64,000 nt of DNA. Source: Promethearchaeota archaeon Loki_b31 (GTDB taxonomy: Archaea > Asgardarchaeota > Lokiarchaeia > Sigyniarchaeales > SOKP01). The DNA lies in assembly GCA_005222975.1 (NCBI GenBank), contig NJBI01000011.1, positions 17,810 through 81,809 on the forward strand, written 5' to 3'. The notes under the pieces were generated by a model, which searched no databases, was not told the origin of the DNA, and was given only the letters and a program-made list of their open reading frames with translations. The position numbers and the translations under genes were made by a program. Shown here in pieces: positions 13,602 through 62,394 of this stretch (positions within the stretch are counted from its first letter, which is position 1; each line of letters opens with the position of its first letter).

Positions 13602-14237
13602 ATGTCAAAAGTAAAAATAGGTGCGATAGCCTCTGGTTCTGGGAGTAATTTAGAAGCAATAATTAAAGCATGCGAGGAAGGCATTTTGAAACATAAGGCG
13701 GGCGTAAAAGTACTTATTTGTAACAAAACTGGAGCATTTTGCATGGAACGAGCGAAAAACCATAACATACCATATGAATTAATTGAATCTAATAAGTTTC
13801 TTCATCTCCCCAGAGAAGAGTTCGATAAAAAGATGATAGCTGTACTAAAAAAATACGATTGTGAATTAGTTGTTTTAGTCGGCTATATGAGATTAGTAAG
13901 CCAAAGTTTTATTGATGCTTTCAATGGGAATGTTATGAATATACATCCTGCCCTTTTGCCTTCCTTCAAAGGTATGCACGCTCACAAAGATGTTTTAGAA
14001 TATGGTGTAAAGGTTTCTGGTACTACAGTTCATTTTGTGGATCCTCAATCGGATCATGGACCAATCATCATCCAAAAATGCGTTCCTGTGTACGATACCG
14101 ACACAGAAAAAACTTTAGGACCAAGAGTTTTAGAATGGGAGCACAAAATCTTTCCTAAAGCGATAGAATTATATTGCGATAAACGGTTGCATGTTGATGG
14201 AAGAATTGTAAGAATCGATGGTGATGTTGTCTTATAA
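13602..14237 (+). CDS. purN: Phosphoribosylglycinamide formyltransferase
   Basis: SGSGSN, GYMR, NIHPALLPSFKG, GTTVHFV, DHGPII. Confidence 0.96.
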   Translation: MSKVKIGAIASGSGSNLEAIIKACEEGILKHKAGVKVLICNKTGAFCMERAKNHNIPYELIESNKFLHLPREEFDKKMIAVLKKYDCELVVLVGYMRLVSQSFIDAFNGNVMNIHPALLPSFKGMHAHKDVLEYGVKVSGTTVHFVDPQSDHGPIIIQKCVPVYDTDTEKTLGPRVLEWEHKIFPKAIELYCDKRLHVDGRIVRIDGDVVL

Positions 14238-14255
14238 TTGTAATTATTTAAATAT

Positions 14256-14358
14256 GCGGGAAATGATTTCGTTGAAAGCTCTGACCCAACTGAAAGTATT
14301 GGTATTTTCCATAACTTAATGAAGAAGATCTTGAGTAATGAGATTACTCATTTCCCGC
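14256..14358 (+). ncRNA. Candidate dual-guide box C/D sRNA targeting tRNA position 34
   Basis: Terminal stem GCGGGAAATGA/TCATTTCCCGC; C ATGATTT 14263, D' CTGA 14281, C' ATGAAGA 14319, D ATGA 14338; the 11-12-nt spacers are complementary to anticodon-arm-like sequences. Confidence 0.65.
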
Positions 14359-14449
14359 TCCTATTACATTCAAATAAACCTAAAATTTTAATCAAATCAA
14401 ACATGGTTTAATAATATATTAATATAATTAACAAGAGAATAAAGTAAAG

Positions 14450-16639
14450 ATGCCTCGTCGTAAGGAAATTTCTGAGATTCTAAATATGATGGAAAAGACT
14501 CAGAATATTAGGAATATTGGGTTTGTGGGCCATATAGACCATGGTAAAACAACGCTAAGCGATTCTCTTTTGAGTGAAGCGGGTTTACTTTCACCCGATC
14601 TAGCAGGTGAAGCACGTGCCTTAGATTATTTAGAAGAAGAACAAAGACGTGGAATTACCATGAAATCTACTAATATTTCATTATACTATGAAAAATCCCT
14701 TAAAGACCACGACCCTTTTCTAATAAATCTTGTTGATACACCAGGCCACTTAGATTTTAGTGGCAAAGTAACTCGTGCTTTAAGGTTAATAGATGGAGTC
14801 GTTGTAGTTGTCGATGCTGTTGAGGAAATAATAACTCAATCTGAAACGGTTATTAAACAAGCTCTACAGGAAGGTGTGAAACCAGTACTTTATATTAATA
14901 AAGTAGATCGCCTCATCCGAGAGTTAAAGCTAACAGATGAAAAAATAAGAAAAAAATATACAAGGATTATTAAAGATTTTAATACGCTCATTAAAAGGTA
15001 CGCAGATAAACCCTTCAAAAAAGAGTGGCAAGTATCTCCTGACATTGGAAATGTTGCATTCGGCTCAGCGCTCCACAAATGGGGTTTTACATTAAGTATT
15101 TTAGAAAATAACGAGTTAAAGTTTTCGGATATTAGATCGCGGTATCAAAAAGAAACATACACTAAAGAAACCTATGCTGATTTAGCTGTTTATTTTCCAA
15201 TACACAACGCAATACTAGAAATGGTTGTCGATCACCTCCCTAATCCTATTGAAGCTCAGAAATACAGAATAGGTAAGATTTGGTGTGGAGATTTGACATC
15301 TGAAGTTGGAAAATCTATGACTAATTGCGATCCAAATGGACCTTTAATAATATGTTTGAGTAAAGTACAAGCAGATAAGCACAGTTTGGTCGCAACTGGA
15401 AGAATATTTTCTGGAAATTGTTTCAATAAAGAGGAAGTATTTTTATTAAGAGAAAATAATTTCGATACAATTCGAAAAACCGCAATTTTCATGGGTCAAA
15501 GAAGAGAGCAAGTTGAAGAAATCCCTGTTGGAAACATCGTTGCTATAGAAGGGTTAAAAAAAGTAAAAAGCGGCGAGACTTTAATTAATAAGAATTATAT
15601 TGATAAAATGGTTCCATTTGAAAATGTAAAATATGTTTCTACTCCCGTCGTAACGGTATCAATCGAACCGGAATATTTAAGAGATTTAGATAAAATGAAA
15701 GAGCTCATCGAAAACATACTAATCGAAGATCCCAATTTGTTATTTGAAATAAACGAGGAAAACGGCGAGTTCCTACTCTCAGGTATGGGACCTTTACATC
15801 TTGAAATCACCGCAAATGAAATTGAAAAACGAGGTGTTGAGATTTCAACATCAGAACCAAGGGCGGTCTTTAAAGAATCTTGCAAATATGGTTCTTCTAC
15901 TATAGCTGCAGAATCAACAAACCATCAAAGTTCGCTAAAAATTAGAATAGAACTATTAAACGATAAAACAAGCAGGTTCTTCCGGACTCATGATTTTAAG
16001 TCTATAAAACCAGTAGCAAAATTGAAAGAATTGTTAGAAGAATTTACTGATTTAACAACGGATGAAATCCAAGACTTTTGGACATATTTCGATAATAATA
16101 ACGTTTTAATTTATAATTTAAAAGATGATTTAAACCAATTCTTGAAAGATACAAATTTAGAAATTATTGATAAAATTCTATTAAATGGTCCACTATGCGG
16201 CGAAAAATTAACAGGTCTAAAAGTTATAATTGAAGAACTCGTCGTAAATAAGCTTGACGAAGAAAATGCGTTTACAGAATTATCGGCAATGTTTTACGAT
16301 GCCATTAAAAAAGCTTTAAACGAATCTGGACTTATCCTACTTGAACCTATATACTATACAATTATTCAATTACCCCCAGATTACATAAAAAATACGCTTT
16401 CTTTGCTTTCAAAATATTCTGCAAAAATAAAAAATGTCAATCAAGAAAAGGATTATCAAGCAATCATAGAAGTGCTCTTGCCAGTAAGAAATTCTATTAA
16501 ATTTGCTGAAGCTATTCGTTCTAGCACTTCAGGAAAAGCGTTCTGGCAAAATGAGTTTTACGCTTACATGGAAGTCCCTAATCATGAAGCCAAAAGATTA
16601 ATTAGTGATTTAAGATTTCTTAAAGGGCTTTCTTGGTAG
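14450..16639 (+). CDS. Elongation factor 2 paralogue (aEF-2p-like) lacking the diphthamide motif
   Basis: GHIDHGKTT, RGITM, DTPGH, NKVD, GMGPLHL, GPLCGE; no HRG motif in domain IV. Confidence 0.88.
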   Translation: MPRRKEISEILNMMEKTQNIRNIGFVGHIDHGKTTLSDSLLSEAGLLSPDLAGEARALDYLEEEQRRGITMKSTNISLYYEKSLKDHDPFLINLVDTPGHLDFSGKVTRALRLIDGVVVVVDAVEEIITQSETVIKQALQEGVKPVLYINKVDRLIRELKLTDEKIRKKYTRIIKDFNTLIKRYADKPFKKEWQVSPDIGNVAFGSALHKWGFTLSILENNELKFSDIRSRYQKETYTKETYADLAVYFPIHNAILEMVVDHLPNPIEAQKYRIGKIWCGDLTSEVGKSMTNCDPNGPLIICLSKVQADKHSLVATGRIFSGNCFNKEEVFLLRENNFDTIRKTAIFMGQRREQVEEIPVGNIVAIEGLKKVKSGETLINKNYIDKMVPFENVKYVSTPVVTVSIEPEYLRDLDKMKELIENILIEDPNLLFEINEENGEFLLSGMGPLHLEITANEIEKRGVEISTSEPRAVFKESCKYGSSTIAAESTNHQSSLKIRIELLNDKTSRFFRTHDFKSIKPVAKLKELLEEFTDLTTDEIQDFWTYFDNNNVLIYNLKDDLNQFLKDTNLEIIDKILLNGPLCGEKLTGLKVIIEELVVNKLDEENAFTELSAMFYDAIKKALNESGLILLEPIYYTIIQLPPDYIKNTLSLLSKYSAKIKNVNQEKDYQAIIEVLLPVRNSIKFAEAIRSSTSGKAFWQNEFYAYMEVPNHEAKRLISDLRFLKGLSW

Positions 16640-62243: not shown

Positions 62244-62394
62244 GGCGGGATTACCGAGTCTGGTCAAAGGTCTTATGGTTTAGAAGGGTCAAGACCGATT
62301 ATAGGTGCTGGACTTAAGATTGTGGCTCACTTACGAGTGACAATAAAATATCCAGTGGCAAAGGCCTTCGGGAGTTCGAATCTCCCTCCCGCCA
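62244..62394 (+). tRNA. tRNA-Leu(TAA) with two BHB introns (62268-62302 in the D-loop; 62319-62349 at 37/38)
   Basis: GGCGGGA/TCCCGCC acceptor stem, CTGGA/TCCAG anticodon stem, long variable arm, GGGAG-TTCGAAT-CTCCC T arm; a complete cloverleaf after removing both introns. Confidence 0.92.

Follow-up and report, generated by a model that had tools for sequence, protein, structure and literature searches.

A predicted box C/D guide RNA gene conserved in an archaeal class, with complementarity to the anticodon arm of tRNA-Leu(CAA) and to a tag in the intron of tRNA-Met

Results

A conserved element between a formyltransferase gene and an EF-2-family gene

The stretch of DNA that was analysed (the window, 64,000 nucleotides) contains a formyltransferase gene (PF00551, 13602-14237) and a gene for a GTPase of the EF-2/EF-G family (14450-16639). 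Between them, 19 nt past the stop codon of the first and 91 nt ahead of the start of the second, lies an element (14256-14358) that is bounded by a perfect 11-bp inverted repeat, GCGGGAAATGA (14256-66) and TCATTTCCCGC (14348-58). Its plus strand folds with -29.7 kcal/mol (z = -3.84), which was equalled by none of 200 shuffled sequences. An earlier note on this DNA had proposed a plus-strand guide RNA of the box C/D type, and the proposal is supported by this fold and by the conservation of the element as a family. The words on which it was based, ATGATTT at 14263-69, CGTTGAAAGCT at 14270-80, CTGA at 14281-84, ATGAAGA at 14319-25, AGATCTTGAGTA at 14326-37 and ATGA at 14338-41, are all present at these positions, as is the terminal stem. 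The element is single-copy in its own 3.52-Mb assembly of 99 contigs, by which a repeat or a mobile element was ruled out.

A DNA search revealed orthologues of 74-99% identity, located between the same two genes, in about 33 of the 36 genomes of the genus, and the synteny is kept in family f1. Of 151 genomes sampled from the class, 103 have a single occurrence of the 17-nt word TGANGANGATCTTGAGT, by which box C' and the D guide are spanned (90/126 in family f1, 10/13 in f2 and 2/3 in f4), and the reversed pattern that served as a control had no match in these 151 genomes. In the alignment of the genus the single-stranded blocks UCUGACCCA, AUGA(A/U)GA and GAUCUUGAGU are invariant and the hairpin is variable. 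The outer stem is near-invariant, and its rare changes lead to G-U pairs on the plus strand only. As judged from sequence comparison, the predicted sRNA family spans at least three families of the archaeal class. In genome G009 the locus is present twice (G009:C51 and G009:C168; L003 and L021), in copies that have diverged to 97% and 90% identity with the window, which could be due to a duplication or to a mixed-strain bin.

A yTATAr word is situated 19-24 nt upstream of GCGGG, at a distance that is fixed in most of the genus; the TATA-like word of the window (Table 1) may be the promoter of the element. A further block that is kept throughout the genus, AAnCCTAAAATTTTAATCAAA at 14376-14396 (+), separates the sRNA from the EF-2-family gene and is probably the promoter of that gene. 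Both the upstream word and this separate block fit an independent small-RNA gene.

Comparison of the window with Rfam yielded no family match, the best plus-strand matches being unrelated and far below threshold, and the sole match obtained with five orthologues was SNORD25, at 20 bits against a cut-off of 39 bits. Membership of a known Rfam C/D family (of the sR47 or snoPyro_CD type) was rejected, as no covariance model gave a match near its gathering score.

Box architecture deduced from orthologues

The boxes were positioned by comparison of 46 orthologues, some of which have canonical AUGAUGA/CUGA boxes (32 parsed; more than 15 genera). The resulting architecture is given in Table 1.

Table 1. 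Positions in the window of the parts of the predicted guide RNA, of its TATA-like element and of the tRNA-Leu(UAA) gene
Feature	Position	Strand	Remarks
TATA-like element CTTATAAT	14231-14238	+	overlaps the formyltransferase stop codon
Outer terminal stem P1, 5' strand GCGGGAAAUGA	14256-14266	+	perfect complement of 14348-58
Stem I (UC)	14269-14270	+	pairs with GA 14342-43; adjoins the terminal K-turn
Box C UUGAAAG	14272-14278	+	GA of the sheared pairs at 14274-75; 3-nt bulge 14271-73
D' guide CUCUGACCCAA	14279-14289	+	invariant core UCUGACCCA at 14280-88
Box D' CUGA	14290-14293	+	abuts hairpin P3; opposite GA 14321-22
Hairpin P3 between D' and C'	14294-14317	+	C-stem of the internal K-turn; covaries
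Box C' AUGAAGA	14319-14325	+	bulge AAU 14318-20; sheared GA 14321-22
D guide AGAUCUUGAGUA	14326-14337	+	invariant core GAUCUUGAGU at 14327-36; G14333 is N+5
Box D AUGA	14338-14341	+	CUGA in G115, G132, G039 and G041
Outer terminal stem P1, 3' strand UCAUUUCCCGC	14348-14358	+	pairs with 14256-66
tRNA-Leu(UAA) gene	62244-62394	+	two introns, in the D-arm and the anticodon region

The terminal boxes of the window, UUGAAAG and AUGA, fall in the same alignment columns as AUGAUGA or GUGAUGA and CUGA in G115, G039 and G041. All 32 parsed orthologues have a C'-to-D spacer of 12 nt and 30 of them a C-to-D' spacer of 11 nt, and the nnGA box at D' abuts a hairpin of 14-57 nt that is followed by a 3-nt bulge and GAnGA. 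Box C' reads AUGAUGA or GUGAUGA in four members of the genus (L009, L011, L015 and L028). The two positions that flank the terminal boxes are paired in 93% and 96% of the 46 orthologues, against 50-53% in a non-cognate control, with 31 distinct helix sequences; likewise, the closing pairs of P3 are formed in 85-87%, against 38-52% in the non-cognate controls, with 29 distinct closing 4-mers. In L032 and L033, which have AUGCGCU as box C and GCGA as box D, the pair A14276-U14339 has changed in a coordinated manner to G-C and the terminal helix reaches the AAU bulge as a continuous duplex of 15 bp. The D'-guide core is invariant in 32 sequences of the genus, and UGACCC is kept across three families.

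The terminal boxes of the window are degenerate, yet both GA dinucleotides are kept. Its terminal K-turn has a GUU bulge and a stem I of just 2 bp, after which an internal loop precedes the 11-bp outer stem; in orthologues the helices abut the terminal boxes. The following sequence properties by which archaeal C/D RNAs are recognized were found: boxes of a terminal K-turn, an internal C'/D' pair, guide spacers of about 12 nt, and a guide with at least about 9-10 bp of complementarity to a stable RNA in which a sensible base occupies N+5. With its long terminal stem and an internal K-turn that is closed by a hairpin, the molecule is more snoRNA-like than typical archaeal sRNAs.

Two further observations concern the stems. 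In L032, L033, L171-L174, L179, L189 and L190, box C is AUGCGCU or AUGAGCA and box D is GCGA or GCUA, and in those genera Watson-Crick pairs have taken the place of the second sheared A.G pair in the terminal K-turn. Furthermore, the outer stem (14256-66 / 14348-58) is conserved in sequence, beyond pairing, as GGGAAAUGA / UCAUUUCCC in family f1 and GGAAAUACUC / GAGUAUUUCC in f2 (L161-L190), which hints at an extra role, for instance in processing or protein binding.

The D guide and the anticodon arms of tRNA-Leu

The tRNA-Leu(CAA) gene of the same genome was located by direct search at G000:C88:17975-18140 (-) and has two introns. The arm of the spliced tRNA reads AUGGA-CUCAAGA-UCCAU, and the core of the D guide pairs with A31-C40 at 10 out of 10 positions, the variable first and last bases of the guide remaining outside the duplex. 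G14333, the fifth base upstream of box D, is opposite C34. Within the genus this arm is shared by 22 tRNA-Leu(CAA) genes, of which two are devoid of the 31/32 intron and thereby confirm the splice junction. A fixed-spacing pattern for tRNA-Leu(CAA) gave nothing useful in other families; a 13-mer search was used instead and detected uninterrupted GGACUCAAGAUCC in 30 genomes, including family f2. Based on the N+5 rule and on the analogy with Pyrococcus sR47, the D guide would direct Cm34 on tRNA-Leu(CAA), which is the target that had been foreseen for this guide.

Also the pairing of this guide with the tRNA-Leu(UAA) of the window, mentioned in the earlier note, proved real: the gene has two introns, and the spliced arm ACUUAAGAUC pairs with the D guide at the same 10 positions, with a G-U at position 34. 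This tRNA is a possible secondary target. Its gene was missed by ARAGORN and by the Rfam tRNA model, which call only about 23 tRNAs in the genome because most of its tRNA genes are interrupted. The 'tRNA-Leu(caa)' reported by ARAGORN at G000:C17:58684-58787 (-) is really a tRNA-Ser(CGA) with discriminator G and was discarded; its 'Lys(ctt)' at G000:C92:28877-28988 (-) is an intron-bearing tRNA-Glu(CUC). The assembly does not contain assembled rRNA; in the 16S and 23S rRNA of the closest relative, G017, no target site was detected, the best pairings of the three candidate guides comprising 8-9 pairs with mismatches.

The tRNA-Glu(UUC), to which the first guide had been assigned, is encoded at G000:C88:36916 (+) with two introns, and its arm is CUAGG-CUUUCAC-CCUGG (GGCUUUCACCC). 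At positions 38 and 40 this arm departs from the predicted GCUUUCRACG, by which this part of the proposal is refuted according to the criterion set in the earlier note. In the same region (G000:C88:36916-37246 (+), L042) this gene is closely followed by a second, heavily interrupted tRNA-like gene.

The D' guide and a tag in the intron of tRNA-Met

From the invariant core of the D' guide the target (U)GGGUCAGA was predicted. The assembly itself is without an intron-bearing tRNA-Met, and the target was read from relatives, the closest being G017 (99% identity over a 141-nt query that contains the element). When five relatives were searched with a pattern, the target was located in the intron of a tRNA with a CAU anticodon, an elongator-Met-like acceptor (GCCGG...) and the arm CCAGA-CUCAUAA-UCUGG. 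The D' guide pairs over 9-11 bp with this intron tag of the predicted tRNA-Met(CAU) of elongator type, instead of being aimed at a wobble base 34 as had been proposed for both guides. The tag was detected in 31 genes that represent 22 distinct contexts and four families. Its core is conserved for 95-100% (GGGUC 100%, AGA 95%) versus 36-59% at the variable flanks, from which an A-rich run just upstream of the tag is the exception. It is situated 8-24 nt, mostly 11-13 nt, from the anticodon-arm site, and is present whether the intron in the genus follows positions 37-40 or interrupts 31/32.

These two intron positions occur within one genus (L118, L131 and L133 versus L146, L149-L151 and L153), which suggests that the intron has been relocated or re-gained with the tag kept. 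The T-loop of the tagged tRNA-Met is unusual, CUCAUAU or CUCAAAC.

Guide and intron differ between lineages in a matching way. Guide CCCAA of genus g1 faces UUGGG in the intron, and CCCUG of G044 faces UAGGG (11 bp with one G-U). In G039, of family f4, guide UGACCCUAUU (CCCUAUU) faces intron AAUAGGGUCA (AAUAGGG) in a duplex of 10 bp that is shifted by two positions in both partners. Genus g9 combines guide AUCUGACCC with intron GGGUCAGAU, and the duplexes of G049 and G042 comprise 10 and 9 bp, respectively. The D' guide and the tRNA-Met intron tag, as predicted partners, covary with compensatory changes between families. Opposite D' N+5, family f1 has the third G of GGG and family f4 the first, a difference that speaks against methylation of the intron at a conserved site. 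The CAGAC part of the tag resembles CCAGAC of the exon, and some of the conservation could serve the folding of the pre-tRNA. The tRNA-Met intron of G060 (family f7) is without the tag.

Of 10 positions in the arm of tRNA-Met, the D guide matches 8 and is mismatched at 36 and 37. A dedicated guide for C34 of tRNA-Met (GAUUAUGAGU in box context) was found neither in the own genome nor at 30 sampled sites in five relatives. Among the 26 GGGTCAGA sites of the own genome, which include the antisense strand of the element itself, no evident stable-RNA target for the D' guide was seen; one of the other sites is part of an unrelated intergenic inverted repeat, one lies in a region with a short (228-nt) frame and the others are in longer open frames.

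In G055 the same tag is present in the D-arm intron of tRNA-Leu(UAA), the only genome with a perfect D' match in an intron of this tRNA. As a general D' target tRNA-Leu(UAA) was rejected: the D-arm intron in the genus has GGGUCAAGACC, with an extra A (27 genomes), which leaves 7 contiguous pairs, and the gene of the window holds the same word. In these introns (L197-L225) GGGUCAAGACC is a near-copy of the D-loop of the exon, GGUCAAAGG.

Proteins of the predicted particle

L7Ae is encoded in the own genome. Nop5 is absent from this 92%-complete assembly and fibrillarin is represented by a sub-threshold match only; Nop5 is present in 35 of the 36 genomes of the genus, and fibrillarin adjoins Nop5 in five out of five close relatives. 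The 16S and 23S rRNA, the Nop5-fibrillarin operon and the elongator-type tRNA-Met are all missing from the assembly and all present in close relatives.

Discussion

The plus strand of 14256-14358 is, on the evidence of sequence and conservation, a gene for an archaeal box C/D guide RNA of about 103 bases. To the reading as a whole, namely a stand-alone box C/D sRNA with its own promoter of which the D and D' guides pair as redrawn here, we attach a probability of roughly 0.8.

It is unlikely that only the D guide is at work, with the D' side being an orphan or purely structural and the intron motif being kept for folding or splicing of the pre-tRNA. In Pyrobaculum the tRNA-targeting sRNAs usually have one working guide and another one without a target (PMC7994747, PMC6009581), and the sequence that the motif shares with the anticodon stem of the exon, its half-pairing within the intron hairpin, the unconserved N+5 base and the untagged intron of G060 would all agree with such a division. 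However, invariance of UGACCC across three families is unexpected for an orphan guide, and the tag survives the move of the intron from 37-40 to 31/32. The flanks of guide and intron undergo compensatory changes, and the motif is constant even though the segment with which it might pair intramolecularly is CUGA, CUGU or CUAG. These properties argue for the D' pairing as redrawn.

The arrangement proposed in the earlier note, with box C at 14263, box D' at 14281, guide 1 (CGUUGAAAGCU) directed to Um34 of tRNA-Glu(UUC) and guide 2 to Cm34 of tRNA-Leu(CAA), is very improbable in its first half. In the orthologue comparison its positions for the terminal stem, box C', box D and guide 2 held. Its other words do exist in the window, UUGAAAG is complementary to CUUUCAA, just 8 contiguous pairs, one of them G-U, are formed with positions 30-37 of tRNA-Glu, and in G060 AUGAUUU does stand as box C directly after the terminal stem. 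Against this, the arm of tRNA-Glu(UUC) is mismatched at two positions, and 'guide 1', which contains the real box C, varies in relatives (UUGAAGA, AUGAAAG, AGGAAAA, AUGCGCU) with insertions of up to 17 nt, unlike the tRNA-Glu loop, which cannot vary. The UGA of the supposed box C is part of the 5' strand of P1, where the box is fully Watson-Crick paired, and is lost in L009, L015 and L022. The spacing from the 14263 box to CUGA at 14281 is inconstant, whereas that from UUGAAAG to CUGA at 14290 is constant in nearly all parsed orthologues, which places both boxes 9 nt downstream of where they had been put. A closed conformation of the 3' tail (GAGUAAU / AUUACUC) was abandoned too, as it needs a stretch of 4-5 nt that is without conservation. 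Even less credible is an element that acts in cis only, either by terminating or stabilizing the formyltransferase transcript as a hairpin or as an L7Ae-binding leader of the EF-2-family gene. The short distances to both genes and the synteny in f1 would suit it, but the TATA-like word lies upstream of the element and a separate promoter-like block precedes the EF-2-family gene; moreover, the internal single-stranded stretches are better conserved than the stems, the spacers have the lengths of C/D guides, and a tRNA anticodon arm is matched perfectly at N+5.

The nearest known counterpart of the D half is sR47 of Pyrococcus abyssi, the D guide of which methylates C34 of tRNA-Leu(CAA) in vitro on a substrate that contains GACUCAAGAUCC (PMC3413156); sR47 is also listed in two other studies, in which position 34 is predicted to have Pyrococcus C/D guides in tRNA-Leu(CAA), Leu(UAA), Met and Trp (PMC7994747, PMC7668247). 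Both RNAs have two box pairs with a 12-nt spacing and a guide upstream of box D that pairs with the arm of tRNA-Leu(CAA) and selects C34, and the core of the sR47 substrate is the same as here. In contrast to sR47, the present RNA gave no detectable sequence-family match (Rfam, window and five orthologues), is about 103 nt long with an 11-bp outer stem, and has a true hairpin K-turn at C'/D' in place of a short K-loop. In addition, its terminal boxes are degenerate and there is a conserved intron target, in a tRNA, for its second guide.

Intron-related C/D methylation has been described before. In Haloferax volcanii the C/D guide sR-tMet is responsible for Cm34 of the elongator tRNA-Met (Joardar et al. 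2011, cited in PMC4033218 and PMC6601510). Like the RNA predicted here it is a trans-acting C/D RNA for elongator tRNA-Met, and it acts on the pre-tRNA according to the title of that paper. The guide that would reach C34 in the present case has the two mismatches with tRNA-Met and is perfect for tRNA-Leu(CAA), unlike that of sR-tMet. The pairing of sR-tMet reportedly involves intron sequence; here, by contrast, the intron would be contacted by a separate D' guide at some distance from the anticodon arm. In Euryarchaeota a box C/D RNA resides within the intron of pre-tRNA-Trp (Clouet d'Orval 2001; Singh 2004; via PMC11408192 and PMC7994747). In both cases a tRNA intron is tied to C/D-guided methylation of C34, but in pre-tRNA-Trp the intron is the guide, whereas here the guide is encoded at another locus and finds its target in a short tag that the intron bears. 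Human tRNA-Met receives Cm34 through SNORD97/SCARNA97 (PMC6601510). The likeness of this C/D-guided Cm34 to the present case is confined to the working principle. In eukaryotic snoRNAs a weak guide is helped by accessory base-pairing beyond the duplex at the methylation site. Unlike the RNA described here, SNORD97/SCARNA97 and the snoRNAs with accessory pairing are eukaryotic and have no intron tag.

Surveys of archaeal C/D guides have searched mature rRNA and tRNA and found no conserved targets elsewhere (PMC6009581); Lui et al., who searched mature sequences only, state that conserved targets of archaeal guides other than rRNA and tRNA are not known. A recent preprint on the tRNA introns of Asgard archaea mentions neither guides nor methylation.

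The following mechanism is proposed. The two K-turns would bind L7Ae, after which Nop5 and fibrillarin would assemble on the sRNA. The D guide would pair with A31-C40 of spliced tRNA-Leu(CAA), and C34, at N+5, would become Cm34. The anticodon arms of tRNA-Met and tRNA-Leu(UAA) match the D guide imperfectly, and docking on the tag is therefore proposed: the intron tag may serve as the site at which the same particle holds these tRNAs before splicing. Docking of the D' guide on an intron implies that methylation would precede splicing. That a single guide RNA could thus serve three tRNAs, C34 of Leu(CAA) by perfect pairing and the wobble base of Met(CAU) and Leu(UAA) through D' docking, is put forward tentatively, with the odds leaning against it. 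Alternatively, the D' pairing may lead to methylation of a G in the intron, have a chaperone role in folding or splicing, or be an incidental complementarity.

A guide for Cm34 of tRNA-Leu(CAA) is already established in Pyrococcus, and the D half of the present RNA is an ordinary new member of this kind. What is new, as far as the sequence comparisons indicate, is that a would-be orphan guide has a conserved and covarying partner within the intron of a tRNA. Should the docking be functional, it would link the unusually heavy intron load of the tRNA genes of these archaea to RNA modification, it would order methylation ahead of splicing, and one guide would cover several tRNAs. If the three-tRNA reading is true, the tag would provide the tRNA introns of Asgard archaea with a selectable function, which would explain their retention.
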